Below are positions 13,286-50,464 of a DNA stretch of 64,000 bases, piece after piece. The translations under genes and the position numbers were made by a program. The notes below the pieces were generated by a model. That model did not search any database. It was not told the origin of the DNA and worked only from the letters and a program-made list of their open reading frames with translations. The stretch comes from a virus. Where the stretch lies: IMG/VR virus record IMGVR_UViG_2849712525_000001; one strand, given 5' to 3'. Positions within the stretch are counted from its first letter, which is position 1. Each line of letters begins with the position of its first letter.

Positions 13286-13360
13286 TGGTGATTGTAGCAC
13301 AATGGTAGTGCGGTGGATTGTGGCTCCAACTATACGGGTTCGACTCCCGTCTTTCACACC
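13286..13360 (+). tRNA. tRNA-His-like (anticodon GTG), aberrant acceptor stem
   Basis: Plus-strand T-arm ACGGG-TTCGACT-CCCGT, anticodon loop TTGTGGC, extra 5' G as in tRNA-His, encoded CCA; acceptor stem has two U-U mismatches and A discriminator. Confidence 0.4.
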
Positions 13361-13729
13361 AAAGAAGAAATTTATTATAATGAAAAGACATCTGGGCATT
13401 TTGTGCCCATAAGTGATTTCACAATACAAGAGAACAATAACTTTATCAGATATAATCAAAGAAGGTAAATTTTAAATCAGTCATAACAAAAGAACTTATG
13501 TATCTGCGAAGTTGTGCCAGTAACATGAGACCGACGTAAAAGGCAATAGGGGACAATGACTCATATCAATTGAGAAACAGAAGAAAAACTTGGAAAAGCC
13601 TATGTTAGACACTTGAAGAGTTAGGGTTCATAGGAAAGTTCGCAATATATTTATATTTCAATACTTAGATTTAAGTGAATTAGAAATAAAAAAGACTCTA
13701 TAAATGATATTCATTTATAGAGTAAGATT

Positions 13730-18424: not shown

Positions 18425-18500
18425 TGGTACCCAATATAGGAATCGAACCTATAATTGATGGTTCGTAGCCATCTGTTTTATCCATTAGACTAATTGGGTA
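18425..18500 (-). tRNA. tRNA-Arg (anticodon ACG)
   Basis: Minus-strand cloverleaf, T-loop TTCGATT, anticodon loop CTACGAA, CCA encoded. Confidence 0.8.
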
Positions 18501-18507
18501 TGTTTTT

Positions 18508-18581
18508 TGGAGGCCTCGACCAGACTTGAACTGGTATAAATAGGGTTGCAGCCTATTGCATAGCCATTCTGCCACGAGGTC
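18508..18581 (-). tRNA. tRNA-Cys (anticodon GCA)
   Basis: Anticodon arm ATAGG-CTGCAAC-CCTAT, T-arm ACCAG-TTCAAGT-CTGGT, CCA encoded; A2-C71 mismatch. Confidence 0.7.
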
Positions 18582-18625
18582 GCAAATATTTTCTTTTTGT
18601 TTTACAATATTTTAACTTTATATTT

Positions 18626-19705
18626 TCATTTAATGACCCATTGAAGTTTTGAATCATCAGTAAAATATAATTCTCCTCCATAATCAGAGCACCAACTTTT
18701 GTCCAAATTGACTTTTTCTTCATTGTTTTTCAATTCTATTTCATAATCTTGTTTCATCTGAGAAACTAAATTATCTTCTCGTGAAATTGAAATATTACTC
18801 TTCAAAGTTTTGTTTATAATAACATTTCCACTAATAAGACTATCTTTAAATTCATCTATAGTGGCTTTTTTAATGATTTTTTTATATATTTTTTTATTTG
18901 CACTTTCATAACAACAAATCTGTAATACTTTGCGTATTTGAAAATTAGGCTCATATCTTCCTGCTAAATAAATAATTATTGGGTTTACATAGTTACTAAA
19001 TGTAAAAAGTCTTTTTTCTTTATCATCTAATTTTAGAGGAAATAAAATGATATAATCATATTTTTTATTTTCATCTAATTCACATAAAGAAGAACAAGTG
19101 TCCTCAACTCCATTATAGTTATAGATAATTTCATAATTCAAAAAATAATTATTTATAAGTTTTTTAATATCCTCATACTCTTTTATTTCTTTCAAAGGCT
19201 TTGCTTTCATTTTCTTTTGATTAAGAACATCAATAATAATATTTATGTATTCTTCTGTGACATTTTTATTATTAATAAATATAGGCTCAGATGTAAAATC
19301 GGTTGTACGATATAACTGAATTGTTTTTTCTCTATATATTTCATTTAAAACGTTAGCTACTTTATCAATATGATTGACATAAATATCCTTTTTCAAGAAA
19401 ATATTTTCAATATAAAACTTTAAAACATCTTGCCAATTATTATTAACAAATAAATTTTCCATATCTTCTGGTGATGTAACATAAAAAAGTGTTTTTAACT
19501 TATCCATCAAAATCTCTGATTTTATAAATGAGTCTTTTGTAAACATACTACTTAATTTATTATAATTGTCTATAGTTTCCTCTACATTTTCTCGAAGATG
19601 TTTTCCATGAAAAGCTTCTTCAAGGTTATTATAATATTTTTCCTTATACAAAAAACCATCTGAATATGTCGGTGACAGATTTAACTCTTTAATATTTGTT
19701 ATCAT
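18626..19705 (-). CDS. hypothetical protein, paralog of 53729..54880
   Basis: N-terminus NLSPTYSDGFLYKEKYYNNLEEAFHGKHL matches NLYPKDTNGFYYKRKYYSNIKDALEGKHL of the 53729 gene. Confidence 0.55.
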   Translation of the reverse strand: MITNIKELNLSPTYSDGFLYKEKYYNNLEEAFHGKHLRENVEETIDNYNKLSSMFTKDSFIKSEILMDKLKTLFYVTSPEDMENLFVNNNWQDVLKFYIENIFLKKDIYVNHIDKVANVLNEIYREKTIQLYRTTDFTSEPIFINNKNVTEEYINIIIDVLNQKKMKAKPLKEIKEYEDIKKLINNYFLNYEIIYNYNGVEDTCSSLCELDENKKYDYIILFPLKLDDKEKRLFTFSNYVNPIIIYLAGRYEPNFQIRKVLQICCYESANKKIYKKIIKKATIDEFKDSLISGNVIINKTLKSNISISREDNLVSQMKQDYEIELKNNEEKVNLDKSWCSDYGGELYFTDDSKLQWVIK

Positions 19706-19980
19706 ATAACACCTCTCTCGTCCATCTAAAGGCTTTATAGTAGCCTTTTAAAAACTAGTTAAAATAAATCAATACTCCTTAAAAACCCCTGCTGGCATCT
19801 GCCATATATATTCTGGAGTGCTTTTCAGTATTCTGACTTACCATGCCAATATCAGAAGTTTGATGAACTGAAAAGAATTTTTTGAATAAGGTTTTACATG
19901 GATATTTATATACCTTATACCTGTAGAGGAAAATTTTAGAATATGTTATCAGCAAAAACAATTTATATCCTAAATAATAT

Positions 19981-20020
19981 TTGGTGCTCATAGTAGGATT
20001 TGAACCTACATATGGGCATT
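19981..20020 (-). pseudogene. 3' tRNA fragment (T-arm + acceptor + CCA, 40 nt)
   Basis: Reads as GTAGG-TTCAAAT-CCTAC-TATGAGC-A-CCA on minus strand but abuts tRNA-Ile, leaving no room for a 5' half. Confidence 0.4.
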
Positions 20021-20096
20021 TTGGTAGGAATAATAGGAATCGAACCTATATTGCACGATTATCGGTCGTGAGTACTCACCAGTTGTACGATACTCC
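20021..20096 (-). tRNA. tRNA-Ile (anticodon GAT)
   Basis: Anticodon arm CACGA-CCGATAA-TCGTG, T-loop TTCGATT, acceptor with one G-U pair, CCA encoded. Confidence 0.8.
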
Positions 20097-20174
20097 TATA
20101 TGGTATCCGTTGGTGGTAATGCTCCACCGTCTTCAACTTGTAAGGATGATGTTTTCCTTTTAAACTAAACGGAT

Positions 20175-20251
20175 ATGGTCTCGATAAAAGGATTTGAACC
20201 TTTACAAACTCGGTCCCAGGCCGAGTGCACTACCAAATTATGCTATATCGA
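20175..20251 (-). tRNA. tRNA-Pro (anticodon TGG)
   Basis: Anticodon arm CTCGG-CCTGGGA-CCGAG, T-loop TTCAAAT, CCA. Confidence 0.8.
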
Positions 20252-20377
20252 GAGGAAAGAGAATATCTCTTCCGTATTTATGCTGGACCAGACATAATAT
20301 GTTTATCTATCACTACAATAGACTGGACTCCGAGATACTTCCCAATATCTTATCTTTACCTTATTTCATGAAGGAAA

Positions 20378-20452
20378 TTGGCACCTCTTGAAGGAATTGA
20401 ACCCTCATCGTGGAGGTAGAAACTCCATGCTCTATCCATTAAGCTAAAGAGG
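20378..20452 (-). tRNA. tRNA-Arg (anticodon TCT)
   Basis: Anticodon arm TGGAG-TTTCTAC-CTCCA, D-arm GCTTAATGGATAGAGC, CCA. Confidence 0.8.
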
Positions 20453-20655
20453 TAATAATGATAACTATTTATCGCAATAGCCTTAGCATCTGACTCCTTA
20501 TACAGAATATACTTTCATTTTCTATTCTTTCATGCACTTTCAAATATACTAAGAAAATATATATTTTCGTCAAAGCCAACCTCCTAGCTCGTGACTATCT
20601 GCATCCATTGCTTATGCAGTTTCCACATGGTTTTATTTAATAAATTATATAATCA

Positions 20656-20732
20656 TTGGTGGACGATATAGGATTCGAACCTATGACCAGTCGGTTATGA
20701 GCCGACAGCTCTGACCATCTGAGCTAAACGTC
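20656..20732 (-). tRNA. tRNA-Met or Ile2 (anticodon CAT), elongator type
   Basis: Anticodon arm GTCGG-CTCATAA-CCGAC, D-arm TAGCTCAGATGGTCAGAGC; one U-U mismatch in acceptor stem. Confidence 0.7.
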
Positions 20733-20743
20733 CATATTTTTAA

Positions 20744-20822
20744 AATGGTGGAAACTTTGGAATTCGAATCCAACTGATTTCCTGTGTGCAAAACAGGTGA
20801 CCACACCTAGCAGTCCCAGTTC
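20744..20822 (-). tRNA. tRNA-Ala (anticodon TGC)
   Basis: Anticodon arm CCTGT-TTTGCAC-ACAGG; G3-U70 Ala identity pair; T-loop TTCGAAT; 7-nt variable loop. Confidence 0.65.
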
Positions 20823-20835
20823 CCAATAATACATT

Positions 20836-20923
20836 ATGGCGCTGACTATAGGACTCGAACCTATGCTAGATTTACATCTAGTACGGTTTAGCAAACCGCT
20901 GCTTTACCACTCAGCCAAGTCAG
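20836..20923 (-). tRNA. tRNA-Ser (anticodon GCT), type II
   Basis: Anticodon loop TTGCTAA, long variable arm ACTAGATGTAAATCTAGC, 88 nt, CCA. Confidence 0.8.
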
Positions 20924-20931
20924 CAAAAATA

Positions 20932-21018
20932 TTGGTACTCCTAATGGGAATCGAACCCATACGAGCTTTTGCCCACAGAAGTTTAAGTTCTGTATGTCTA
21001 CCGATTTCATCATAGGAG
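20932..21018 (-). tRNA. tRNA-Leu (anticodon TAA), type II
   Basis: Anticodon arm CAGAA-CTTAAAC-TTCTG, long variable arm, CCA. Confidence 0.8.
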
Positions 21019-21021
21019 TAT

Positions 21022-21106
21022 TTGGTCTTCTCGAAGAGATTTGAACTCTTACGCTATAAAGCACTAGTTTCTAAAACTAGCATGTCTACCTATTCCATCA
21101 CGAGAA
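21022..21106 (-). tRNA. tRNA-Leu (anticodon TAG), type II
   Basis: Anticodon arm CTAGT-TTTAGAA-ACTAG, long variable arm, CCA. Confidence 0.8.
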
Positions 21107-21111
21107 GATGA

Positions 21112-21188
21112 TTGGTGGTTTCAGATGGACTTGAACCAACGCTACGAGAAGTTTCAGTTATCTGCTCTACCAGATTGAGCTATGAAAC
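21112..21188 (-). tRNA. tRNA-Phe (anticodon GAA)
   Basis: D-arm TAGCTCAATCTGGTAGAGC, anticodon loop CTGAAAC; one mismatch each in anticodon and T stems. Confidence 0.7.
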
Positions 21189-21202
21189 CAGATGATAAAA
21201 TA

Positions 21203-21277
21203 TTGGCACCTCTGTAAGGAGTCGAACCTTAAGTTTTGGTTTTGGAGACCAATGTGTTCCCTTTTACACTACAGAGA
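21203..21277 (-). tRNA. tRNA-Trp (anticodon CCA)
   Basis: Anticodon arm TTGGT-CTCCAAA-ACCAA, T-loop TTCGACT, CCA. Confidence 0.8.
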
Positions 21278-21279
21278 TA

Positions 21280-21356
21280 TTGGCATCAGGGAGAGGGCTC
21301 GAACCTCTAAATGTGGGAGTCAAGGTCCCATGTGCTTACCAGTTTCACCACCCTGA
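21280..21356 (-). tRNA. tRNA-Gln (anticodon TTG)
   Basis: Anticodon arm TGGGA-CCTTGAC-TCCCA, T-loop TTCGAGC, CCA. Confidence 0.75.
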
Positions 21357-21371
21357 TATCTAAATAGATTT

Positions 21372-21440
21372 AGTATACTTAGAAGTGGTTGAACCCTCAT
21401 ACCCTCTATTAGAAGTCGAGTGCATTACCAACTTTGCTAC
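21372..21440 (-). pseudogene. degenerate tRNA-like element
   Basis: Good 5' half (acceptor + D-arm TAGCAAAGTTGGTAATGCA) but anticodon and T stems do not pair and no CCA; contains direct repeat TTAGAAGT. Confidence 0.3.
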
Positions 21441-21470
21441 AAGTACAATATGTAATTATGAAATTTTTTA

Positions 21471-21557
21471 ATGGTGGGCCCCCCTGGATTCGAACCAGCA
21501 GCGTTTCTAATGTCACAGATTTACAGTCTGCTTCCTTCACCAATTTGGATAGAGACC
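21471..21557 (-). tRNA. tRNA-Tyr (anticodon GTA), type II
   Basis: Anticodon loop CTGTAAA, long variable arm, acceptor with two G-U pairs, CCA. Confidence 0.8.
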
Positions 21558-21564
21558 CATATGT

Positions 21565-21651
21565 TTGGCGCTCAGTGAGGGACTCGAACCCCCAAGTCCT
21601 TTCAGACCAACTGTTTTCAAGACAGCACGACTACCAATTATCACAACTGAG
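21565..21651 (-). tRNA. tRNA-Ser (anticodon TGA), type II
   Basis: Anticodon loop CTTGAAA, long variable arm TGGTCTGAAAGGACTTG, CCA; TATAAT 8 nt upstream of 5' end. Confidence 0.8.
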
Positions 21652-21835
21652 CGTTTTTAAATTATAAATATTGATTGACCTCACAACACTCCTATGAAAT
21701 CACCCAATGGTCTATTGACAAGAAAGATATCATCTCAGAGTTTTTAATTATCTACTGTAAACTTTTTTTTACAATAATAAATAATCACAAGCTATACTTT
21801 TATGGTAGATACTGGAGAAAGTAACTAATGATTAA

Positions 21836-21909
21836 TGGTATCCGAGGTGGGAGTCGAACCCACGATATCTGATAGAGCGCTAAAGCGTAAACTGCTTGCC
21901 AACTCGGAC
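21836..21909 (-). tRNA. aberrant tRNA-like gene (canonical T-arm/acceptor/CCA, no standard D/anticodon arms)
   Basis: 3' half GTGGG-TTCGACT-CCCAC + CTCGGAT-A-CCA pairs with 5' GTCCGAG, but the interior only forms AAGC-AGTTTAC-GCTT (possible TTT anticodon) directly after the acceptor. Confidence 0.35.
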
Positions 21910-21914
21910 ATATT

Positions 21915-21991
21915 TGGCGGACCCTACAGGACTTGAACCTGTGACCCTTACGTTAACAGCGCATCGCTCTAACCAACTGAGCTAAAGGTCC
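21915..21991 (-). tRNA. tRNA-Asn (anticodon GTT)
   Basis: D-arm TAGCTCAGTTGGTTAGAGC, anticodon loop CTGTTAA, T-arm ACAGG-TTCAAGT-CCTGT, CCA. Confidence 0.75.
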
Positions 21992-22012
21992 ATAAAATAA
22001 TAAAATGATACT

Positions 22013-22087
22013 TGGAGTGGGTAAAGGGAATCGAACCCTCATCCTCTGCTTGGAAGGCAGATATACGAACCATTATACTATACCCAC
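22013..22087 (-). tRNA. tRNA-Gly (anticodon TCC)
   Basis: Anticodon arm TCTGC-CTTCCAA-GCAGA, T-loop TTCGATT, CCA. Confidence 0.8.
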
Positions 22088-22091
22088 AATA

Positions 22092-22167
22092 TGGTGCCAT
22101 CTGAGAGATTCGAACTCCCAACCAACTGATTACAGGTCAGCTGCACTTCCAGTTGTGCTAAGGTGGC
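22092..22167 (-). tRNA. tRNA-Thr (anticodon TGT)
   Basis: Anticodon loop CCTGTAA, T-arm TGGGA-GTTCGAAT-CTCTC region, CCA; C5-A68 mismatch. Confidence 0.75.
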
Positions 22168-22171
22168 AAAT

Positions 22172-22246
22172 TGGCGGAACATAGGAGAATTGAACTCCTA
22201 TCTCTTGATAGACAGTCAAGTATATTTTCCATTATACGAATGCTCC
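22172..22246 (-). tRNA. tRNA-Asp (anticodon GTC)
   Basis: Anticodon arm CTTGA-CTGTCTA-TCAAG, T-arm AGGAG-TTCAATT-CTCCT, CCA. Confidence 0.8.
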
Positions 22247-22247
22247 A

Positions 22248-22324
22248 TGGTTGCAGAGGCAGGATTTGAACCTGCGACCTCAGGATAATGAGTCCTGCGA
22301 GCTACCAAACTGCTCTACTCTACG
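22248..22324 (-). tRNA. initiator tRNA-fMet (anticodon CAT)
   Basis: C1-A72 mismatch; D-arm TAGAGCAGTTTGGTAGCTC and T-arm GCAGG-TTCAAAT-CCTGC match B. subtilis tRNA-fMet; anticodon stem AT-rich and loop CTCATTA (U37). Confidence 0.75.
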
Positions 22325-23651: not shown

Positions 23652-25364
23652 TTATTCATCCCACCAGTTATAATTTTTAATGTCATCTTCAATCTGATGA
23701 GAGCTTGAGGATGATTGTTTTTTTATTTGCCTGATTGCTTCACTTTCTTGAATTCCCGGAGAAAACCATGCTGGTTTATCTGAGTTGTTCTTCAAATCAT
23801 TAAACAAAAATGTTAGAAAGCAGTTTATTTGATTATCTGGAGTCTTGAAAGAATATCCAGAGGTTTTTATTCTATCAAGAATATTAAGCATAATTGAATC
23901 AAAGGATGCCTGATGAATAATAAGTTTTTCAAGATTCATTATTAACAAATCCCCTTCTATCATTTTCGCTTCTTTACTCATATAGAATTTCTTAAAGAGC
24001 TTCAGTTTATTGAAGCAGGCATTGAGAAAGTCTTTATCAGTGTTTTCTATAAAGATTGAATTATAAATAGAAGAATTGATTTCATTAATTAAATTAATTA
24101 ATAAAGAATCGTTTTTATTATTTTCAGTATAAGTATTTAAAGTTTTATTAATGTTGATATCTTTTTCGCTATTTTGTTTCTTTCTTTTTGAAGAAATTGT
24201 TTCTTTCATATCTGATGAAATGATGGCTCTTGATGGAGTCTTGATATCTGTCAAATTCTCTGAATTATGGCTCTTTTCAATTTTTTCTTCATCATCACAA
24301 GTCAAATTCACGAAATTGTGGCTCTCATCTAATATGTCATAATCATCAAATTGTGGCTCACTGGATTCTTTCATGTCTATATCTTCAAGGTATTGCTTTA
24401 CAAATTGATATATTTTATCTGGGAAGTTTCTTGTTCCATTTTCCCATTTGGAATATGTCTGTTTATAAAGGCTTAATGAATATTTTTTATTTATAGCCTC
24501 TACTATCTGTTTTTGGGTTAAGTTATGCTTTAAGCGAAGCTGTTTAACATATGTATAATTTCTTTTATTTTTATTGATAATTAAATCTTCTTTGAGTTGG
24601 TCCATGCGACTCTTTAGATATAGTTTTTTGTTTTTGCTGTCTAAGCTTTCAAATTCTTCAACATTATCTTCAAAGTTGAAAAGTTTTAATAGATAGAAAC
24701 GGGTATCCTGTGAAAATGCTCTATATTCAAATAATAAACCACAGGCTTTTAAAAGATATCTTCCTCTTTTTAATGCTGACTGTCCAAGCCCTAATTTCTT
24801 TTCCTGAGTTTCAAGAGATTCTTGGAAGTATATTCTTTCTTTGTCATCCACAAAATAATTCATTTGAGATAAACACATTGTATCAAAGTATATAGAATAT
24901 TGAAGTTTTGTAGCTAGAGGTAGATTGTTATAGATATCATCAAATAATTCATTTGGAAACCTAAAGAAATTGTAACTATCTAAATCTGTTTCATAATAAA
25001 ACTCATCTGTTTCATCTTTTTTATTATAGTTATATAGATATATCTTATTATTTCCAACGCTTCGCTTATAGTTGATGAGTCCAACCCTCTTTAAATCTGC
25101 TCTTGCTCGGCAACATGTTGATTCACTAATTTTTAATTTATTCATTATATCAGAATCTGAGTAGATAATATAAGGACCACTGTTATCTTTATAAGTGGTA
25201 ATGATATATCTGTTTAAATAGAGAGAATACATAAACTTTGCTGGAACAGAAAGTTTTTTGAATCTATTATCTGAAAATAAGACTTTTGGTATAGATAAGA
25301 AAGCATCTATTTTTGTTGTATCATTAATATTATAGTATTTAGATTCTTTATCCATAGAAAACAC
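23652..25364 (-). CDS. plasmid/phage replication initiator, RepA_N family with central HTH
   Basis: N-terminal FLSIPKVLFSDNRFKKLSVPAKFMYSLYLNR ... GLINYKRSVGNNKIYLYN matches RepA_N; central HTH RLKHNLTQKQIVEAINKKYSLSLYKQTYSKWENG; 570 aa. Confidence 0.6.
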   Translation of the reverse strand: MFSMDKESKYYNINDTTKIDAFLSIPKVLFSDNRFKKLSVPAKFMYSLYLNRYIITTYKDNSGPYIIYSDSDIMNKLKISESTCCRARADLKRVGLINYKRSVGNNKIYLYNYNKKDETDEFYYETDLDSYNFFRFPNELFDDIYNNLPLATKLQYSIYFDTMCLSQMNYFVDDKERIYFQESLETQEKKLGLGQSALKRGRYLLKACGLLFEYRAFSQDTRFYLLKLFNFEDNVEEFESLDSKNKKLYLKSRMDQLKEDLIINKNKRNYTYVKQLRLKHNLTQKQIVEAINKKYSLSLYKQTYSKWENGTRNFPDKIYQFVKQYLEDIDMKESSEPQFDDYDILDESHNFVNLTCDDEEKIEKSHNSENLTDIKTPSRAIISSDMKETISSKRKKQNSEKDININKTLNTYTENNKNDSLLINLINEINSSIYNSIFIENTDKDFLNACFNKLKLFKKFYMSKEAKMIEGDLLIMNLEKLIIHQASFDSIMLNILDRIKTSGYSFKTPDNQINCFLTFLFNDLKNNSDKPAWFSPGIQESEAIRQIKKQSSSSSHQIEDDIKNYNWWDE

Positions 25365-36063: not shown

Positions 36064-36185
36064 ATGAAAATAATTTCTATTGCGGAAAAAGTCAATTCAA
36101 GTTATAATTGACTTTGATTAGAGTATCTTGGATATAAAAATATTATCAAAAAGCAAGGAATTTAATTGAGAAGGGAATGGTAGCA

Positions 36186-37130
36186 ATGGGCAAAAACACA
36201 AAAGTAATTACACTCTATAATCAAAAAGGAGGCGTTGGTAAAACAACAACAACAATTAATCTCGCTCAAGTTCTAGGGAGTACCTTTAATAAAAAAGTAT
36301 TAATTATTGATAATGATGCTCAAAACTCTCTTAGCTTTCTGGCAAATATACAAATAAGAAATAATGGAGCTGTAGAAGATGAAGATGGATTAAAGACATT
36401 AGGGTGGCTGGAACAGATGTTTCAGTTATACGGAGATGTTCCAACAGTTCGAGATATTCAGGAAACAATTATAACTCCAACATATCAAAAATCGGAGAGA
36501 ATTGAAGGAACCATTGAGTGGGATATAGTCGAGAAAAAATTTGCGTTCGATATGATTCCTGGAACTGGAAAAGACTTATCTTTGGCTGAATTGATTTTTA
36601 TCACGCCCAACGATGAACCTTTTATTCTTAAGCCAGAAAATAGAAAATTGGCGCCATATGTCTTGAAAGTTATCATTGAGCAAATAAAGAAATACTTTGA
36701 TTATGATTATATCTTAATTGACTGTCCTCCATCACTAGGTATCTTAAGTATGGGAGCTCTAGTTGCATCAGATTATTTAATTATACCAACAACAAGTGAT
36801 ATGCTATCAACGATAGGGATTCAAACAATTATAGACAATCTTAAGGAATTACACTTATATGTACCAGACTTTAATATATTAGGGGTTTTGTTTAATTGCT
36901 ATTCAGATACAAAATATGATAATGAGTTGATAGAAGATGTAAGAAATTTTGGAGACTCTCAAGGAATATCTGTATTTGAAGTGAAAATTCCTAAGAAAAA
37001 TCAAATGAGAATGGTAAGTTCTGAAGAGATTATAGCAGTTCTCAAAAACGAGAAGGCTTTTAAGAGTTATACTGAGTCAATTATTGACCTTGCTCAAGAA
37101 ATTATAAAGAAAAGTGAAGGGGGAGAATAG
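36186..37130 (+). CDS. parA: ParA/Soj-family partition ATPase
   Basis: Deviant Walker [17 protein letters not shown]; start set at second ATG (MGKNTKV) 9 nt after AAGGGA RBS. Confidence 0.85.
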
Positions 37131-39038: not shown

Positions 39039-41342
39039 ATGGACTTAAGATTAAAGGATAGATACAAGCAAAGGCTGGCGAAGAATTCTATGCCAGCTTC
39101 TTCTCATAAAAAGGAAAATGAACTGGAAACAATTAGAGGTGCTGTTCAATATCGAATTGTACCTAGAGGATTTTTAGAATCAGATAAGTTAATCTGGGTA
39201 GTCATGGATATTAAGGATGTTGCCACAAAAGAGCATATCAAAGTTGTTGGAGAAACCAATCACTACAATGTTGGAGACTATTTGGAATTTTATGGAACAT
39301 GGGTAGAAAGAAATGGAAAAAAAGAATTTCATTTTAAATATGCATTAAGAGTAGATGATGATTATGTTGGTGCAACAGCTATGCTAGCTTTTCTATTTGG
39401 AGCAAAGACAGCAAAAAGAATTATTGAGCATTATGATAACAAACCTCAAGAACCTATGAATATCTTTAAAAACAATGAAGAGAGATTTAGAGAAGATATG
39501 AAGTCAGTTAAGGGAATAGGTGATAAAAAAATTCAAAAGGCCTATGAGAAACATAAAAAATATATTGCAGTTGATGCTCTTTATTTTAAATTTGCAAGAT
39601 TCAATCTTTCATTGTCAAAGGCTCTTAAACTTATTAAAAAGTGGGGAAGTGCAGCAGCCGATATTATTGATGAGAATGTTTATCAGTTAATTCATATTGA
39701 TGGTTTCTCATTTGAAACAATTGATAGAATTGGATTAGGATATTATAAGTTTGATAAAAAGGATGGAAGGAGAATAGAAGCATATCTTATTCAAATTCTA
39801 AAAAATGCTGCATCAGGAAAAGGAGACTGTTTTTTGCCATTAGAAGGACAGGAAGGTCTTATTGCTCAGGCACAATTAGGCTTAAATATATCAGATAATC
39901 TTATTAGAGAAAAAGTCATTGACCTTATCTATAAACAAAAGCTGTACAAAAGATTATATGAAGGCAATATAGTTATATATCTTCCTCATATTTATAAAGC
40001 TGAAAAAACTGTTGTGCAAATAGTTTCATCTGCAATACATAAGAATAAAGTTATCAAAGAAGATAAAGTTGATATGATAATTGCTGATTATGAAAAGAGA
40101 AAAGGCTTTACTCTTGCAAACAAACAGAAGGAAAGTATTAAAACCTCATGTATTAATCAGTTTAGCATAATATCTGGTCCACCTGGTTCTGGCAAAACAA
40201 CAATTGTTGATGTCATATGTGAAGTTTTTAGAAGGCATAAAAAAACATGTAATATCAAATTGGCTGCCTTGGCTGGGAAAGCAGCAACACGAATGGCTGA
40301 AACAACAGGGATAGAAGCCAGTACAATTCATAGATTGCTAGGATATAATCCAGACACTGGATGGACATATAATGAAAAAAATCAGTTGCCAAATGTTGAC
40401 TTGCTAATTATTGATGAGTTTTCTATGGTTGACATTCTTCTGTTTGAGAAATTGATGAAAGCTGTCTCAAGAGATACCGTTGTGATTTGTGTAGGAGATA
40501 AAGACCAGTTACCATCAGTGGATTGTGGACAGGTTTTAGAAGACTTAATTGATGTTCCTTATATTCCTAAGACCATTCTAGAAGAAATCTATAGACAAAA
40601 AAAGGATAGCACCATTTTAAAAAGAGCTCTTGCATTTAATAAAGAACAAATTCCCTCTTTAACTGAAGCGAAGGATTTTAAATTTATTTCCTGTGAGGTA
40701 AATGATATTAAAAAGACTTCAGAGACTGTCTTGGATTTATATGTAAATAAAATTAAGCAATGGGGAATAAAGAACGTCTGTCTCATGGTTCCACAAAATG
40801 TCAAAGAACTAGGAGGAGATATAATGAATCTTCAACTTCAAGGAATTATTAATCCGCCTGATAAAAGCAAAGCTGAAATCAGTAGTGGGCATAAAAGAGT
40901 TTTTAGAGAGGGTGATAGAGTTATCCAGTTGAAGAATATTGAGAATGGGATTTCAAATGGAATGGTTGGAACTGTTATTGAATGTTTTCCTACGGATAGA
41001 CATATAGCATCAGAAGATAAGTTTACAGTATTATTTGATAATGGAAATGAAAAGACATATGCCAGAGAAGATTTTGATATGTTAAAGCTTGCATATGCAT
41101 TAACTATTCACAAAAGCCAAGGTTCAGAATATAAATGCATCATTATGCTGATGGATGAGCATCAGAGATTTATGATAAGAAAGAAATTAGTCTATACAGG
41201 AATGACTCGATGTAAAGATGAACTTTTTATCGTTGGACAGGAAAAGATGTTTGAGCATGCCTTGAAAAATAAAGATAAGCGAAGAAATACTATGTTAACT
41301 CACTTATTTATGGAATATAAAGAAGGAGCCACAATTTCATGA
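39039..41342 (+). CDS. RecD2-like SF1 DNA helicase
   Basis: Walker A SGPPGSGKTT, Walker B LLIIDEFSMVD, C-terminal ALTIHKSQGSEY motif; 767 aa. Confidence 0.85.
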   Translation: MDLRLKDRYKQRLAKNSMPASSHKKENELETIRGAVQYRIVPRGFLESDKLIWVVMDIKDVATKEHIKVVGETNHYNVGDYLEFYGTWVERNGKKEFHFKYALRVDDDYVGATAMLAFLFGAKTAKRIIEHYDNKPQEPMNIFKNNEERFREDMKSVKGIGDKKIQKAYEKHKKYIAVDALYFKFARFNLSLSKALKLIKKWGSAAADIIDENVYQLIHIDGFSFETIDRIGLGYYKFDKKDGRRIEAYLIQILKNAASGKGDCFLPLEGQEGLIAQAQLGLNISDNLIREKVIDLIYKQKLYKRLYEGNIVIYLPHIYKAEKTVVQIVSSAIHKNKVIKEDKVDMIIADYEKRKGFTLANKQKESIKTSCINQFSIISGPPGSGKTTIVDVICEVFRRHKKTCNIKLAALAGKAATRMAETTGIEASTIHRLLGYNPDTGWTYNEKNQLPNVDLLIIDEFSMVDILLFEKLMKAVSRDTVVICVGDKDQLPSVDCGQVLEDLIDVPYIPKTILEEIYRQKKDSTILKRALAFNKEQIPSLTEAKDFKFISCEVNDIKKTSETVLDLYVNKIKQWGIKNVCLMVPQNVKELGGDIMNLQLQGIINPPDKSKAEISSGHKRVFREGDRVIQLKNIENGISNGMVGTVIECFPTDRHIASEDKFTVLFDNGNEKTYAREDFDMLKLAYALTIHKSQGSEYKCIIMLMDEHQRFMIRKKLVYTGMTRCKDELFIVGQEKMFEHALKNKDKRRNTMLTHLFMEYKEGATIS

Positions 41343-41417
41343 TTATGACAGATACAAAGTTTCTAATAACGAGGAGGAGCCATAAATTCATGAATTTGAC
41401 ATGTTGGAGGAATAAAA

Positions 41418-41945
41418 ATGAAAAAAAGACTTATTTTGGATTTTGATGGAACTCTGGTTGAATTTAAACCAGTTGAGAGATTAGATGAACTATTGACTCC
41501 TGGATATTTTTCAAAACTATTTGTTTTTGAGAATGTTGTTTTAGCTATTCAGGAATTATACAAAAGGCATCCAGAAATAGATATACTCATAGGAAGTAAA
41601 GTGCTAGATGCACCACATATTCCAAAAGACAAAGATGTAATTATAGATAAGCACTTGCCATTTATAAATAGAGAAAATAGAATCTATATCCCTTATGATG
41701 CTAAAAAAACCGATTATATACAAATTACGTCTTGTGATTATGTTTTGGATGATTTAACAAAAAACCTTGTAGAGGTTGAAGAGAGTGGGGGACATGGTAT
41801 CAAACTCTTGAATGGAATAAACGCTAATAAAAGAACATGGAAAGGACCAGCTGTACATAAGGATTATCCTTATACGCTTATTGTTGAGCAGCTAGAAATT
41901 TACATGAATTTGAAGGAGAAAGAAAATGAAATGGAAAAAGTATAA
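41418..41945 (+). CDS. HAD-superfamily 5'(3')-deoxyribonucleotidase-like protein
   Basis: Motif I LDFDGTL at N-terminus; 175 aa. Confidence 0.5.
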   Translation: MKKRLILDFDGTLVEFKPVERLDELLTPGYFSKLFVFENVVLAIQELYKRHPEIDILIGSKVLDAPHIPKDKDVIIDKHLPFINRENRIYIPYDAKKTDYIQITSCDYVLDDLTKNLVEVEESGGHGIKLLNGINANKRTWKGPAVHKDYPYTLIVEQLEIYMNLKEKENEMEKV

Positions 41946-43764
41946 TAAGATAAGTGGATTGCATGTATGTCCTCAAATGGATATGTATCTTACATCTTGT
42001 GGATTTACCAAGGCATCCGCCTACTACTTAACTCACCCTTGTGAGATGCATGATAAATATCTTCTACACGATTTAAGAGAAGTTGTTCATGCTATTGGGG
42101 AGTTTATTAAAAATAATAAAAAGATAGTTATTATAGGAGATTATGATGCAGATGGAGTGACATCAACAAGCTGCTTATATTTAACTCTAGATTATTGTGG
42201 GGCTTGTGTGGAGTATCTCATTCCACATAGAGTCAAGAATGGATATGGATTAAGTCATGCTTTGGTGGATGATGCTATTGCAATTAATGCTGATGTTATC
42301 TTAACATGTGATAATGGCATTTCCGCCTTAGAAGCAATCCGATATGCTAAAAGCAAAGGAATCATTGTTATTGTGACAGACCACCATACACCAGGAGAAA
42401 CTTTGCCAATTGCAGATTATATTGTTCATCCTGCTTTAGGAGACTATCCATTTTCTAATATAAGTGGATGTCAGACAGCATATAAACTATGCTTAGGTAT
42501 CATTGAAGAGTGCTCCCCATTAAAGGATAAGAAATTAATAAAAAAAGCAATGAGGAGAAAGGAATTCCAATTGAAGGACTATCTGTTTCAGTTGTCAGCA
42601 ATTTCTATTGTAACTGATGTTATGCCACTTGCTTCCATTGATGAAGATACAGCAAAAGTCAATGAAAATAGAAAATGGTTAATGGATGGAATTGAAATGA
42701 TTAAAAAGAATCCAGATTGGAGAATTCAAATGATGTTAAAAGAACTTGGGGTCAATCAAAAAACATTTGAAGAAACATCAATTGGGTTTTATGTTGGACC
42801 GTGTTTAAATGCAGTTGGAAGGTTAACTGATGCAGGTAAAGCAGTTCAATTTTTAACAGCACAAACTAAAGAGGAAGCAAAAAAAAGATTTTCATTTATG
42901 TACTATATCAATGAAGAGAGAAAAAAGGTAAAGTTGGAGTGCCTAGAAAAAATTCATATGAGTGATAAACATAAGATTAATTTAATTGTCCAAAAGGAAC
43001 TGCATGAAGGGGTACTTGGGATTTTGGCATCTCATTATACAAATCAGAATGGATATCCAACTTTTGTATTGACTGACTGCACAATCGAAAGTGGTCAAAA
43101 AGCTTGGAAAGGTTCAGGAAGAGGAGTAGAAGAACTAAATTTGTATGATATTCTTTCTCAGGTTCAAGATGAAACAGGGACACTCTATACCTTTGGTGGA
43201 CATGCGGGGGCAGTAGGGGTTACTGTTCTGGATGAAAATATTGAACAATTTAAAAGCAAAATAACTGAAATTGTAGAGGACAGACTTGCTCATTCCTCTT
43301 ATGCAAAGAATTATATTCAATTGACAACAATTGAACAAAGAAAGGAAATTGCTGAAGCGGTCAAAGAATTAAAGCCTTTTGGAAATGGACTTCGTTTGCC
43401 AATCGTGGAATTAAGCTATAATGTTAAGGAAATTAATCTGTATTATAAGTCTAAACACGCTAAATTTCTTCATAAGGAACCTGATAAATCAGGAACAAAG
43501 ACTATTTGGAATAATTTTGAATTATGGAACTATGGAGGATTAGAAGAAGCTAAAATACTATGTAATAGAGATTTTGTTTTATCTTTTGACAATGTTCAAA
43601 AACTTATAAATAATGGAAAAACAGAATCTGAAGCTCAACAGCAAAAATATGAAAAATATATACGAAAAACGAAGGAATCAAGGGTGACATATAAAGTTGA
43701 AGTTGGTTATAGTGATTTTTGTGGAATGGGGCCAAGATTTAATGTTTTAGAGGTTACTTTTTAG
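41926..43764 (+). CDS. DHH/DHHA1 phosphoesterase, RecJ-like ssDNA exonuclease
   Basis: DHH motifs IIGDYDADGVTS, ..CDNGIS.., VIVTDHHTP; 612 aa. Confidence 0.8.
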   Translation: MKWKKYNKISGLHVCPQMDMYLTSCGFTKASAYYLTHPCEMHDKYLLHDLREVVHAIGEFIKNNKKIVIIGDYDADGVTSTSCLYLTLDYCGACVEYLIPHRVKNGYGLSHALVDDAIAINADVILTCDNGISALEAIRYAKSKGIIVIVTDHHTPGETLPIADYIVHPALGDYPFSNISGCQTAYKLCLGIIEECSPLKDKKLIKKAMRRKEFQLKDYLFQLSAISIVTDVMPLASIDEDTAKVNENRKWLMDGIEMIKKNPDWRIQMMLKELGVNQKTFEETSIGFYVGPCLNAVGRLTDAGKAVQFLTAQTKEEAKKRFSFMYYINEERKKVKLECLEKIHMSDKHKINLIVQKELHEGVLGILASHYTNQNGYPTFVLTDCTIESGQKAWKGSGRGVEELNLYDILSQVQDETGTLYTFGGHAGAVGVTVLDENIEQFKSKITEIVEDRLAHSSYAKNYIQLTTIEQRKEIAEAVKELKPFGNGLRLPIVELSYNVKEINLYYKSKHAKFLHKEPDKSGTKTIWNNFELWNYGGLEEAKILCNRDFVLSFDNVQKLINNGKTESEAQQQKYEKYIRKTKESRVTYKVEVGYSDFCGMGPRFNVLEVTF

Positions 43765-46253: not shown

Positions 46254-47594
46254 ATGTTTATACATCTCAATGTAAAAAGCTGTTTTTCTCTTATGAATGG
46301 ATTTAATAAGATAGACAATGTTCTTGAAAAAACAGCTAGAATGAAAAGTAATGCAGTTGCTATTACAGATATTAATACAATGCACACCTTCTATGACTTT
46401 GAGCAAGCGGCTTTAAAGAAGACTAAAAAAACAAAAAGTTTAAAGAGGGATAGTATTCATCCTATTTTTGGAATAACATTTATAGTGAAAGCAAGATATG
46501 TTGAAAATGAATTCTTTAATATTACACTGTTGGCTAAAAATGAGATAGGGTATCAACACTTAATCGCTTTATCAACAATAGCTAATACTAATCATGAGCA
46601 ATTTGCTTATCTCACTTTTGAGGATTTAAAACATCATGGGGAAGGATTATTCTGTCTATCTGGTGGAGAAGAAGGTGAGGTGTTTGACTTAGTTGTTAAT
46701 GATAGAATCGATGAGGCTGTTATGTTATTAAAGGATTTAAAGGCTTTTTTTGGAGAGAATCTATATCTAGAAGTTTCTAATCATTTTATGAAGGAAGAAG
46801 AAAAATTTATTGAGAGTGGCATTATTGAGAAAGCATTAAGTATTGGAATTGATTATGTTGCTACAAATAATGCTTATTATCTTAGAAAAGAAGATGCTCA
46901 GTATAGAAGTCTGGCTGTATCTATGAATAGTGAACTGAACAGTTTAAAAGCAAATGAGGTTGACTGGATTCATAATTATGCTTCTAGACATGTTGACTTC
47001 AATAGTGAATGGTATTTGAAGACAGAAGTTGAAATGACAAAGGCATTTTCTAAATATTTGCTAAAGTATCCGAATCTGCTAGAAAACACCTTAAAAATTG
47101 CTAATGCTTGTCAAGCAACTGTTCCTAAACTTCAAACATTCCCAGAATTTCCATTACCACAAGGCTATACAGAGGAAAGTTATTTTAGAGAGCTAATGCT
47201 TAAGGGGTTTGAAGAAAGATTCCCTGATGATTCAGCATTTGACCCTAGATTCACTCGTCAGGATTATATAGACCGTATGGAATATGAATTTGAAACTGTT
47301 AAGGAAATGGGGTTTCTAGGATATTTGCTGATTGTTCAGGATTATATAAACTTTGCCAAAGATGAAAAAGTTTTTAAACATCCTGAAAGGTATTTTCCAA
47401 GGAATTGCTATCCAGAGTATTCAAGGATTCCTGAGGGGATTCTAAAGAAGAATTATAAGATTGCTGTTGGTCCTGGAAGAGGGTCAGGTGCAGGTTCTTT
47501 ATTATGTTATTTATTAAAAATAACAAATCTTGAACCCTTATCATTGGATTTGCTGTTTGAAAGATTTCTAAATATCGAAAGAGTATCTATGCCT
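46254..47594 (+). CDS. dnaE: DNA polymerase III alpha subunit (DnaE), exon 1 (PHP domain and start of palm)
   Basis: [36 protein letters not shown] matches E. coli DnaE up to the junction; ORF then runs into intron and stops. Confidence 0.75.
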
Positions 47595-48262
47595 AAACTT
47601 GTTGGGCATTCAGTGTGAACTCTATAACTCAGAGGTGTCTCATTACATGAGGCTAACGGTATCAGTTGAATAAGATGGTCATTCAAACCCTACAGGGAGA
47701 TAATGATAATAGTTGAATTGCATGATATGCAATCCAATCAACGAAGTCGCTGACTAAGAAAGCCTAAGGTCCAGAAATGGATAGCTGGTAATATCCGTGC
47801 TAAATTTGCAATTTAATATATTATGAAGCTTCTCGATTTGCATTTAATAATTACAATGTTAGTTTTCATTCATTATCTAAGTGTCTAAGATGTGGTGAAT
47901 TTGAAATAATTCCAATGAACCCAAAAAACAGAAAAAATACAAGCGATGGAATACATCATAAGACCTACAAAACTGGACTAATAAATTTATACTACAAAGA
48001 TAATTTTGTTGGTCAGTATAAAAGTGTTGAAGAAATATATAGAGAATCAAGGAATTATTATGTGTAAACCATATCTTTTAAAAAATGGAGTTAAGTGGTA
48101 ATTATAGAATTGAAAGAATTGCAAAAAAGTGTAACGACTAGAACGTAATTGTTTGTAGGCTAGAAGATGAGTTACTAGCCGAAGTGTACTGACTGATAAG
48201 TTATTTATCAGAAGATATAGTCTATTCCCCTAATAAATATCGGGAAACCGAGGGTATTTTTG
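47595..48262 (+). ncRNA. putative group I self-splicing intron in dnaE
   Basis: 668-nt insertion between codons Pro/Asp of the SMP|DIDTDF motif; 5' exon ends in U, intron ends in G; ATGCCT(exon)/GGGCAT(47604-47609) P1 pairing with U-G; phase 0; flanking ORFs are collinear with DnaE. Confidence 0.6.
47915..48067 (+). CDS. short intron-internal ORF (possible homing-endonuclease remnant)
   Basis: 50-aa ORF MNPKNRKNTSDGIHHKTYKTGLINLYYKDNFVGQY inside intron; in-frame upstream CLRCGEFEI fragment. Confidence 0.25.
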   Translation: MNPKNRKNTSDGIHHKTYKTGLINLYYKDNFVGQYKSVEEIYRESRNYYV

Positions 48263-50464
48263 GATATAGATACAGATTTCCAAAATCAGTATAGACATGT
48301 TATTGTTGAATATGTTCAAGCTAAATATGGGTATGACCATGTTTCACAAATAGTTACTTACAATATGCTAGGCTTGAAAAGCATTATTAGAAACGTAGGG
48401 AAGGTTCTTGGCATTCCTTATCTGGTTACAGATGAATTATCCAAGAATGTTCCTAAGAAAATAAGAAAGTTTGTTTATTTGGAAGAAGAAGATAGAGAAG
48501 AGGAGCAAGAAATTGAACCAACACTGGAAGATTTAAAAACAATTCCTTTTTTTAAAGAAAGAATTGATTCCAGTGAAGATGTTGCTCAACTTTTCAAGAT
48601 TGGTAAACTTTTTGATGGTCTTCCATCTTCAACAGGAAAACACGCCTGTGGAGTTATTATTGGAGCCCATCCACTTCATCAGTATGTTGGCTTAATGGAA
48701 GTTGATGGAGTTCTGGTGACACAATTTGAAAAGAAAGCTTCAGAATCCATTGGGCTTCTCAAAATGGACTTCTTAGGTCTTATTACACTAGACATTGAAG
48801 TGGAGACATTGAGGCTTATAAAGAAAAACAAAGGAATTGAGATAGATTTAGATAAGATTCCATTGGATGATACAAAAACTTTTGAGTTATTACAGAGAGG
48901 TCAATCTGGAAAAGTATTTCAGTTGGAATCTCAGGGAATGCGTAATCTGTTAAAGAAAATGCAACCTACAGATATGAGTCATATTATTGCTATCGCCGCC
49001 CTTTTTCGTCCTGGACCCATGCAATTTATTGATAACTATATCGAAGGAATGAAAACCCCTTCTAAAGTAAAATACCCCCATCCTCTCTATGAAAATTCTG
49101 CAAAAGAAACCTTTGGTATCTTAGTTTATCAGGAACAGATTATGCAGGTTGTGCAGGATATGGCAGGGTTCAGTTTAGGAGAGGCAGATATATTGCGTCG
49201 TGGAATCGGAAAAAAAGATAAGCAATATATCGACCAGATGGAGGAGGAATTTTCCAAACGTTGCGTAGATAATGGTGTCCCTGAAAAGACTGCCAAAGAA
49301 GTCTATGCAATGATAAAGAAATTTGCTGAGTATGGATTTAACAAATCTCATTCAGCAGCATATGCACTCATCGCCTATGAAACTGCATACCTGAAAGCTT
49401 ATTATCCTGTAGAATTTATGGCTGCAAACTGTACTATCAATAGTGATAATAAGGATAAGCTTATATCATGTTTAGCAGAGATAAAAGCGATGGGTATAGA
49501 AATCCTTCCATCATCTATCAGATTCTCTCAAACAAAGTTCACTGTGGAAAAGAGCGAGGGCCAATCAGCTATTCGCTATGGATATATCGGAATTGATGGT
49601 ATAGGTGAAGACATTGCAAAAACTATTGAAACGCTTTCCAATTGTGAAACGTTTTATGATTTTATCAGCCAATGTCCAAATATTCGCAATAACCAGATTA
49701 CAAATCTTATCTATTCTGGGACATTTGATATATTTGGCTGCAGAAAAAAGATGAGAGAGATAGCTCCATCAATTCTTGAAACAGTGAAATACCATAATCA
49801 GATTAAGAGTATATATAAATCATCTATTTTGGATGGCTTAAGTGGTGAAGCGTTCTATGATGGTACAGAATATGGTTTTAAGGAAAAGCTCGATAATGAA
49901 AAAAGAGTTCTTCATTGCTGTATCAGTGGACACCCCTTAGAGCAGATTCGAGGAGTTCTAAAAGGCTATGATACTCTGATTTCAGATATACAAGATTTAA
50001 ATGATGGAGACGATATTCAAATTCTATGTCAGATAAATTCTATACAGCAGATTTTTACAAAGAAAAGTGGAGAGCCAATGGCTTTTCTAAAAATAGAAGA
50101 TGAATACGATTTCTGTGAAGCTATTGTCTTCCCTAAAGCTTATGCAGATATTGAGAATCTTTTAAAAGAAGATTCAGTATTGATTCTTAATGGGAAGATA
50201 CAAATTAAGGAGGACAATGGTGAAGAAAGTATATCTATTATTGTCAATACAGCAAGACATGCATTAAGTAGTGCATTAAGATTCTACGTAGATATAAATG
50301 ATTTAGAAAAAATAGAAGGAGAATTTGTGAATATAAATGGGATTGCTGAAGTGATTGGAGTTGATACAGTTCATAGACAATGCTATAAACAGGCATATTA
50401 TGTAGATTATGTGAAGGCTTTAAATATTTTTAATAAATACAAAATAAAATTTGTATCTGTTTAG
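48263..50464 (+). CDS. dnaE: DNA polymerase III alpha subunit (DnaE), exon 2
   Basis: Begins DIDTDF..HVSQIVTYNMLGLKSIIRNVGKVLG, continues GLLKMDFLGL etc.; spliced product about 1180 aa. Confidence 0.75.
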   Translation, partial: DIDTDFQNQYRHVIVEYVQAKYGYDHVSQIVTYNMLGLKSIIRNVGKVLGIPYLVTDELSKNVPKKIRKFVYLEEEDREEEQEIEPTLEDLKTIPFFKERIDSSEDVAQLFKIGKLFDGLPSSTGKHACGVIIGAHPLHQYVGLMEVDGVLVTQFEKKASESIGLLKMDFLGLITLDIEVETLRLIKKNKGIEIDLDKIPLDDTKTFELLQRGQSGKVFQLESQGMRNLLKKMQPTDMSHIIAIAALFRPGPMQFIDNYIEGMKTPSKVKYPHPLYENSAKETFGILVYQEQIMQVVQDMAGFSLGEADILRRGIGKKDKQYIDQMEEEFSKRCVDNGVPEKTAKEVYAMIKKFAEYGFNKSHSAAYALIAYETAYLKAYYPVEFMAANCTINSDNKDKLISCLAEIKAMGIEILPSSIRFSQTKFTVEKSEGQSAIRYGYIGIDGIGEDIAKTIETLSNCETFYDFISQCPNIRNNQITNLIYSGTFDIFGCRKKMREIAPSILETVKYHNQIKSIYKSSILDGLSGEAFYDGTEYGFKEKLDNEKRVLHCCISGHPLEQIRGVLKGYDTLISDIQDLNDGDDIQILCQINSIQQIFTKKSGEPMAFLKIEDEYDFCEAIVFPKAYADIENLLKEDSVLILNGKIQIKEDNGEESISIIVNTARHALSSALRFYVDINDLEKIEGEFVNINGIAEVIGVDTVHRQCYKQAYYVDYVKALNIFNKYKIKFVSV

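Follow-up and report, generated by a model that had tools for sequence, protein, structure and literature searches.

Group I introns with HNH or GIY-YIG endonucleases are classical elements of phage polymerase genes. The td intron of phage T4, which belongs to class IA2 and encodes the GIY-YIG endonuclease I-TevI, is the described system to which the element of this study is compared. Class IA2 is defined by two hairpins in domain 7, P7.1 and P7.2, together with an extended domain 9 (P9.0, P9.1 and P9.2) (PMC4227781), and the lack of P2 as well as open reading frames (ORFs) that overlap the core are known variations of group I introns (PMC3984707). In this study, a stretch of 64,000 nt from the IMG/VR virus record IMGVR_UViG_2849712525_000001 was analyzed (the whole stretch is called the window hereafter), in which the dnaE gene is interrupted by an insert of 668 nt at 47595-48262. 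This insert is very likely an IA2-like (T4 td-like) group I intron of the type found in phages, and the dnaE that hosts it belongs to a phage or plasmid. A first-pass annotation made from the sequence had already proposed a group I intron, and the proposal is supported by family homology, covariation and a td-like core, not by Rfam.

The dnaE reading frame stops being continuous after 47594 and restarts in phase at 48263. The first DnaE ORF (46254-47618) runs eight codons into the insert and then meets a stop, and the second ORF starts from 48260/48263. The length of exon 1 is divisible by 3, and the joined product is 1180 aa long and reads ERVSMP-DIDTDF across the junction. The Pfam search of exon 1 found PHP and the DNA_pol3_alpha profile up to position 102, the match ending at residue 447, base 47594, and that of exon 2 found DNA_pol3_alpha profile positions 103-260 followed by DNA_pol3_finger, HHH_6 and tRNA_anti-codon. 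The joined DnaE is one polypeptide with PHP, the palm with its PDxD catalytic motif, fingers, HhH and OB domains. A 260-aa stretch spanning the junction could be aligned without gaps to residues 356-469 of E. coli Pol III alpha (2HNH; FERFLNPERVSMPDFDVDF), so the insertion point lies between the equivalents of P400 and D401. In E. coli DnaE, both D401 and D403 belong to the catalytic aspartates. The exact in-phase break inside the motif ERVSMP-D(I/F)D(T/V)DF had been read in the first-pass annotation, and both the Pfam boundary (102 to 103) and the ungapped E. coli alignment agree with it; the U at the end of the exon (U47594) and the G at the end of the insert (G48262), also claimed there, are present in the sequence. 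When the boundaries of the insert are moved by -1, the protein is unchanged and the U...G rule is lost, and other shifts disrupt the conserved motif. A tblastn search of phage genomes found many dnaE genes in a single piece across the insertion point, and the coding sequence of the intron-less site is ...ERVSMPDIDTDF; the comparison with intron-less homologs, suggested earlier as a check, thus shows continuous genes, with the site placed at P400/D401.

The insert is a member of a family of introns, which can be recognized by a conserved 24-mer, GCTAACRGTATCAGTKGAATAAGA. This signature is present in 56 viral contigs of IMG/VR and in 7 contigs of genomes; many of the introns that carry it, some of them on gut viral contigs, are located at the same dnaE site, and others are inserted at a second position of dnaE or in genes other than dnaE. 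Because the same arrangement is found at the same codon in many independent assemblies, the break is not a matter of chance. Several family members do not have any ORF and are only ~330-350 nt long. Other matches of GATATAGTC in the window (16839 and 36522) were rejected as ordinary coding sequence with no intron context. The blastn search against phage genomes matched the 3' core (48196-48296) to 260 records, mostly of Herelleviridae and other Gram-positive phages, these matches being driven by the stretch of J8/7 and the P7 3' strand (48212..48222), and the 5' part (47602-47706) to dnaE of Staphylococcus phage SPbeta-like, Mammaliicoccus phages and Bacillus phage G. Those three phage dnaE are annotated as two genes 0.46-1.2 kb apart and are broken at the same codon (...LP-DIDxD...): in Bacillus phage G the order is gp329, the GIY-YIG endonuclease gp330 and gp331, in Staphylococcus phage SPbeta-like the halves are dnaE_2/dnaE_1, and a 'homing endonuclease' is annotated between the halves in phage G and phi116. 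The dnaE introns of phage G, SPbeta-like and Mammaliicoccus phage phi116 share with the window the site, the family and the location of the ORF, when present, in the P6a loop. Unlike the window, the introns of phage G and phi116 carry GIY-YIG/NUMOD3 endonucleases, which are unrelated to the endonuclease relic of the window and are annotated as separate genes.

The secondary structure of the family is supported by covariation. An alignment (A1) was built from 17 diverse family members with the ORFs of the P6a loop trimmed. RNAalifold, unaided, recovered P1, the long-range P3, P4, P6, P6a, P7.1, P7.2, P8 and several peripheral hairpins, with compensatory changes at 56 of 79 pairs. The P7 pseudoknot, P5 and P9 were then added, which gave a full model of 92 pairs in 18 helices, and 93.9% of the cells are paired in this model, a proportion that falls to 33-43% after sliding the partners by 1-3 columns. 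Changes on both sides were found at 62 of the 92 pairs, and the observed values were reached by none of 500 shuffles. The internal guide GGGCAT occupies intron positions 10-15, all six P1 pairs form in the window copy, and the splice-site pair is U47594-G47604. The first-pass annotation had paired this guide with the exon ATGCCU and a U-G at the splice site; the coordinates are confirmed, and the pairing covaries across the relatives, which carry UACCU/GGGUA and UCCCU/GGGGA, or, in other host genes, UGGGU/GCUCA, UGGAU/GUCCA and UGGCU/GGUCA. All 16 of the 16 sequences keep the splice-site U-G, and at three P1 pairs the guide changes together with the exon from one host site to another. All eight pairs of P3 form in the window copy, with compensatory changes at six of them across the family; such changes were also found at two of the three P6 pairs and at all eight pairs of P6a, the helix whose loop holds the endonuclease relic, and P4 has one covarying pair (G-C/A-U). 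All helices can be formed by the window copy, whose defects are one mismatch (U-C, in P5) and one bulge (a U, in P4). The folding from P3 to P9, another check named earlier, yielded P3-P9 together with P7.1/P7.2, with P7 drawable and most helices backed by covariation (Table 1).

The strand order of group I introns, i.e., the P7 5' strand, the P3 3' strand, P8 and the P7 3' strand, which makes the P3/P7 pseudoknot, is present in the window. The two P7 strands GACUA/UAGUC (48136-48140/48218-48222) are able to pair, are invariant in 17 of 17 family members and are identical to those of T4 td; G48136-C48222 is presumed to be the guanosine-binding pair. P7.1 and P7.2, the hairpins that mark class IA2, are located between P7 and the P3 3' strand (48141-48154 and 48158-48180) and both covary, although P7.1 is missing in a few relatives (L041, L004 and L010). 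The last base, G48262, corresponds to the omega-G, and a G stands directly before GAY in all relatives at the dnaE site. P9 of the window copy encloses only one internal hairpin, capped by GAAA, whereas the relatives have two.

Table 1. Coordinates of the dnaE exons, the predicted intron elements and the endonuclease relic in the window.
Feature	Position	Strand	Remarks
dnaE exon 1	46254..47594	+	PHP, then the beginning of the Pol III alpha palm; last codon CCU (Pro, equivalent to E. coli P400)
dnaE exon 2	48263..50464	+	Opens with the catalytic-site motif DIDTDF (equivalents of E. coli D401/D403), then finger, HhH and OB domains
Predicted group I intron	47595..48262	+	668 nt, IA2-like (td-like) core, 32% G+C; from family homology, covariation and helix coordinates
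P1	47589..47609	+	Exon AUGCCU 47589-47594 with guide GGGCAU 47604-47609; pairs covary in 16 relatives
P10 (candidate)	47600-47603 with exon 2 GAUA 48263-48266	+	Weak, 4 bp, read from the sequence
P3 5' strand	47610..47617	+	UCAGUGUG; partner 48185-48192 (UGUACUGA); directly after P1, no P2
hpA	47620-47623/47631-47634	+	Arms co-vary by eye (CUCU/AGAG, CCUU/AAGG, CGU/ACG)
hpB	47637-47642/47648-47653	+	6 covarying pairs
J3/4, P4 and P5 domain	47654..47798	+	J3/4 is UAA; P4 47656-47662/47791-47798, bulged U
P5	47663-47668/47747-47752	+	One-sided compatible changes only; U-C mismatch in the window copy
P5a/b	47679-47706	+	P5a and P5b covary
Extra P5-domain hairpin, window-specific	47712-47742	+	GUUGA-AUUGCAU-GAU-AUGCAAU-CCAA-UCAAC, in a variable linker
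P5c/d	47762-47789	+	GAAA loop; P5c and P5d covary
P6 (GCU) and P6a (UUUGCAAU) 5' strands	47799..47812	+	Partners 48128-48130 and 48118-48125
HNH homing endonuclease pseudogene (NUMOD4/HNH_3/NUMOD1-type)	47826..48141	+	C-terminal ~110 codons left
J6/7 and P7 5' strand (R element)	48131..48140	+	GUAAC GACUA; invariant in 17/17 family members
P7.1	48141-48144/48151-48154	+	Compensatory changes at 4/4 pairs
P7.2	48158-48163/48175-48180	+	Compensatory changes at 5/6 pairs
P3 3' strand and P8	48185..48211	+	P3 3' strand 48185-48192, then immediately P8 48193-48197/48207-48211
J8/7 and P7 3' strand (S element)	48212..48222	+	AAGAUA UAGUC; invariant in the family
P9 and 3' tail	48227..48262	+	CCC 48227-48229/GGG 48252-48254; inner hairpin UCGG-GAAA-CCGA 48240-48251; P9 and P9b covary

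As compared to T4 td, the window intron has the same order of elements from P6/P6a with the ORF in the P6a loop, through J6/7, P7, P7.1, P7.2, the P3 3' strand, P8, J8/7 and the P7 3' strand, to P9. UAACGACUA is identical in the two introns, GAUAUAGUCU is identical or nearly so, and the Q/P6 region CCGUGCUAAAUU is common to both, while the S element is GAGAUAUAGUCU in td and AAGAUAUAGUCU in the window, with 11 of 12 bases identical. Both introns reside at a conserved site of a phage gene of nucleotide or DNA metabolism. The differences are in the 5' half, the periphery and the endonuclease. In td, P1 and P3 are separated by a P2 hairpin and J3/4 comes directly after the P3 5' strand, so that the canonical 5' order of IA2/td introns (P1, P2, P3 5' strand, J3/4, P4) is not that of the window family, in which the P3 5' strand and J3/4 have hpA and hpB (47620..47653) in between. 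The P5 domain of the window is much larger, its P9 extension is shorter, and its endonuclease relic is of the HNH type, unlike I-TevI. A P3 at the td-like position beside J3/4 was considered and rejected, since no covariation was found there (89% paired vs 86.5% in shuffles), whereas the helix adjacent to P1 covaries heavily. A 3-bp remnant beside J3/4 could coexist with the P1-adjacent helix, which would make a P3 that is interrupted in its 5' strand. It is also conceivable, though rather doubtful, that the family is a structurally distinct and undescribed IA variant, with no P2, a module AAC-hpA-GGUGU-hpB-GCUAA and an enlarged three-way P5 domain. If this were true, the architecture could explain why Rfam misses the family, and many split phage genes would be mis-annotated as two. 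Our literature searches returned no relevant paper on group I introns in phage dnaE or on elements of the P3.1/P3.2 type.

Some side observations were made on this 5' half. The hairpins hpA and hpB are flanked by the invariant strings GUGAAC, GGUGU and GCUAAC (window 47610-47655 with 48185-48192; A1 columns 35-91 and 357-366). In the internal loop between P5c and P5d (window 47765-47768 and 47783-47786; A1 columns 204-207 and 228-231) a perfectly correlated change was seen, CCUAAGG...AGCUGG in eight sequences vs CCUACGG...AGCAGG in nine, by which non-canonical A-G and U-U oppositions turn into Watson-Crick C-G and U-A pairs. An unrelated hairpin occurs in L013 at the place of the extra 47712-47742 hairpin of the window.

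Several points weigh against the group I intron. The single-sequence minimum free energy fold of the loop-trimmed intron gives local hairpins and not the long-range helices. P7 is invariant, hence it has no covariation support of its own, and the candidate P10 is weak, its putative 4 bp including two wobbles. The 3' end of the intron reads UUG with GAGGG before it, which is a possible start of a separately translated C-terminal fragment. In a permissive scan, Rfam RF00028 scored only 12.4 bits (E = 2.8) over 48090-48244, as compared to its gathering score of 50, and made no call, even though the weak alignment includes the classical R (AACGACUA) and S (AAGAUAUAGUC) elements. The controls behaved in the same way: T4 td (L060) scored 40.3 bits and the ORF-less relative L005 18.4 bits, both under the gathering score, and no match was found at the gathering threshold in eight relatives. 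RF00028 of Rfam 15 at its gathering score thus misses the experimentally proven T4 td and every tested family member (L005, L001, L003 and others). The Intron_gpI scan, which the first-pass annotation had offered as a check, gave no call and is uninformative, and the miss is no argument against an intron because the proven T4 td and ORF-less members also stay under the threshold.

Among the other explanations, the one that survives best is that of a dead relic, in which the ribozyme no longer splices, dnaE is a pseudogene or a set of fragments, and the replicon relies on another polymerase. The endonuclease gene has clearly decayed, and lineage-specific changes have accumulated in the window copy (the 47712-47742 hairpin, the bulged U of P4, the U-C mismatch of P5 and wobbles in P7.1), all of which would fit such decay. 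However, both exons are open and keep all DnaE domains and the catalytic motif, each core helix can still be formed, no core position that is invariant in the family has changed in the window copy, and extra peripheral hairpins are also found in the relatives L013 and L067. We therefore consider a dead relic improbable, and the window intron is likely to be splicing-competent at present, judging from its sequence. Still less probable is a split gene, whose halves would be translated separately into a two-piece polymerase, the second one from TTG 48260, with the RNA structure being irrelevant. An ORF can be called from this TTG with GAGGG upstream, and the GenBank relatives are given as two coding sequences (dnaE_2/dnaE_1 and gp329/gp331). 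The last three bases of the intron are often an in-frame start codon (window 48249-48262; A1 columns 442-454), i.e., TTG in the window, ATG in SPbeta-like phages and L041, and GTG in L004 and L010, which is probably the reason why annotators call exon 2 a separate gene. But the break splits the active site of the palm, with P400 on one side and the catalytic D401 on the other; the junction lacks a start codon in phage G and L005 (AAAAG-GAT and AATAG-GAT); and the strong purifying covariation of the RNA structure, including the pairing of the guide with the exon, would be left without a role. The observations do not call for separate translation of the halves. An intein, a group II intron or an assembly artefact has a negligible chance: DnaE genes are well-known hosts of inteins, also in split form, and PMC2677866 and PMC4853749 came up among the literature matches, but the insert has stops in all six frames; a group II intron gave no match and 668 nt is too short for one; and an artefact is excluded because the same insert is found at the same site in dozens of independent assemblies. 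Inteins of DnaE, such as the split intein of Synechocystis DnaE, resemble the window insert in that dnaE is interrupted at conserved positions and homing endonucleases spread the element, but they are removed at the protein level and their ORF is in phase with the host gene, whereas the stop-filled insert of the window would be removed at the RNA level.

On the group I intron reading, the chemistry of splicing would be the established one (PMC3984707), and from it and from the anatomy described above we infer the following steps. In the folded pre-mRNA, P1 would be made by the guide GGGCAU and the six bases at the end of the exon, and a free guanosine held at G48136-C48222 of P7 would attack after U47594. 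The omega-G48262 would then take the guanosine site and the exons would be ligated, possibly aided by the weak P10, to give an mRNA for the uninterrupted 1180-aa DnaE. The intron would have arrived by endonuclease-mediated homing into a highly conserved dnaE site, and its insertion just before the codons of the catalytic aspartates agrees with the fact that homing endonucleases usually target sequences of high conservation. Later, the N-terminal catalytic half of the HNH gene and its reading frame would have been lost in the window copy. This copy is very probably splicing-competent but not mobile on its own as predicted from its sequence, since it has no working endonuclease, unless a related enzyme acts in trans.

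The decay of the endonuclease can be read by comparison with the closest relative, L067, a 57.7-kb contig (DWZO01000084) of a Candidatus Massilimicrobiota merdigallinarum metagenome-assembled genome. The dnaE of L067 is ~70% identical at the DNA level over the whole gene; the insertion site, the P3 sequence and P9 are those of the window, and the P6a loop likewise carries an endonuclease gene, homologous to the relic. Unlike the window, L067 keeps the full ORF of 242 aa with Pfam NUMOD4, HNH_3 and NUMOD1, which is intact, runs through the 3' strands of P6a and P6 and stops at a UAG overlapping the end of P7 (GACUAG). As compared to L067, ~440 nt at the 5' end of the ORF are absent from the window, and in the DNA alignment the relic has lost 8 nt near 48044 and differs by one more indel, of 1 nt; the alignment reaches the same UAG, which is the ancestral stop in the window (48139-48141) and overlaps the P7/P7.1 boundary. 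In BLASTP, the stop-free frame 47804-48064 matched residues 137-208 of the L067 ORF with 57% identity over 72 aa (E = 7e-26). The window retains the part homologous to residues 137-242, and the NUMOD4 and HNH_3 regions (residues 8-102) are deleted, so that the catalytic region of an HNH endonuclease is gone and the frame is broken. The relic itself had no Pfam or PHROG match. It is, by its sequence relationship, a pseudogene of the HNH family and not a member of it. The idea of a decayed homing endonuclease had been put forward in the first-pass annotation, and the match to L067 supports it, although the relic is larger than the 50-aa ORF considered there. That ORF (47915-48067) exists, but the CxxC said to be in frame within it, CLRC at 47882-47893, precedes the ATG of this ORF and shares its stop-free frame; both are fragments of the pseudogene, and the 50-aa ORF is not a gene. 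A GIY-YIG origin of the relic was rejected, as neither phage G nor phi116 has a GIY-YIG endonuclease similar to it, and a weak match to the C-terminus of the HNH ORF of L004/L010 (E = 0.004) was superseded by the strong match to L067. L067 also differs from the window by a repeat-rich hpB expansion of ~150 nt, where the window has instead an extra hairpin in the P5 domain. This expansion (L067 5010-5140, minus strand) is AT-rich and internally repeated, with two copies of ...CAGCAAAATTATATGRAAGAACYATCTATATARATAAATTTT..., and looks like a small repeat insertion inside the intron.

More distant relatives were found in Herelleviridae. In the HNH-endonuclease introns of their DNA polymerase genes (SPO1 I-HmuI type, with Staphylococcus phage Romulus, L068, as an example), the P8 3' strand, J8/7, P7 3' strand and P9 are ~93% identical to the window over 56 nt, and by eye the Romulus intron (L068 505-575) has the same layout ...AAAC-hairpin-GGUGU-hairpin-GCUAAC-P4 as the window. 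The I-HmuI-type endonuclease of Herelleviridae is of the same NUMOD4/HNH_3 type. Unlike the window, the Herelleviridae introns reside in a family A polymerase gene and their 5' domain has no similarity detectable by blastn. The same intron family also occupies a second dnaE-like site in L018, L023, L024, L027, L043, L014, L007 and L066, in which the 5' splice sites were placed ~75 nt upstream of the 24-mer match. This site follows ...SSYMFG or ...SYQFG and precedes ...Y..GYLCAYLR.YHP.EF..., which corresponds to the finger motif GFNKSHSAAYA...YYPVEF, unbroken in the dnaE of the window. In addition, window 48211-48257 (the P8, P7 3' strand and P9 core) matched unannotated stretches of the plasmids NZ_CP126518 of Bacillus toyonensis, NC_015417 of Clostridium botulinum BKT015925 and NZ_CP068081 of Staphylococcus carnosus with 95-100% identity, which suggests further unannotated introns of the same kind on plasmids or phage-plasmids.

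The replicon that carries the gene is large, phage- or plasmid-like, and of a low-G+C Bacillota host. The window contains 22 tRNA genes (13288-13361 and 18425-22324), of which 21 are crowded into 4 kb of the minus strand, and the set covers most amino acids; such a tRNA array is typical of large phages or megaplasmids. The surroundings of dnaE (5233-6483, 23652-25364, 36177-37130 and 39039-43764) hold replication and recombination genes, and the PHROG matches include a DNA polymerase (phrog_1268; Y-family), a DnaD-like loader, a RecD/Dda-like helicase and a RecJ-like exonuclease. By eye, a ParA-like Walker motif could be read at ~36200. The ten large ORFs that were scanned include no recognized virion structural gene. 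When 24 kb of the window were compared by megablast with collections of phages and plasmids, only the 3' core of the intron was matched, and the replicon itself is therefore absent from these collections. The phage-related origin put forward in the first-pass annotation is plausible in view of the 22 tRNAs and the phage-like replication genes, but no structural gene was seen among those scanned. The intron adds weak support for the phage-like nature of the replicon.

Taken as a whole, the element is a new instance of a group I intron of known phage kind, an ordinary type of mobile element in phage replication genes. The dnaE of the window should be read as one gene and not two, and its GenBank relatives annotated as separate genes, such as gp329/gp331 of phage G and dnaE_2/dnaE_1 of SPbeta-like, could be corrected in the same way. 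Pipelines that rely on RF00028 leave such genes split, and the 24-mer or a dedicated covariance model would detect the family. The locus also illustrates a textbook homing cycle, in which the codon of a catalytic site is invaded, the endonuclease decays and the ribozyme is retained, with the intact and the decayed state of the endonuclease both visible in close relatives, i.e., L067 and the window.

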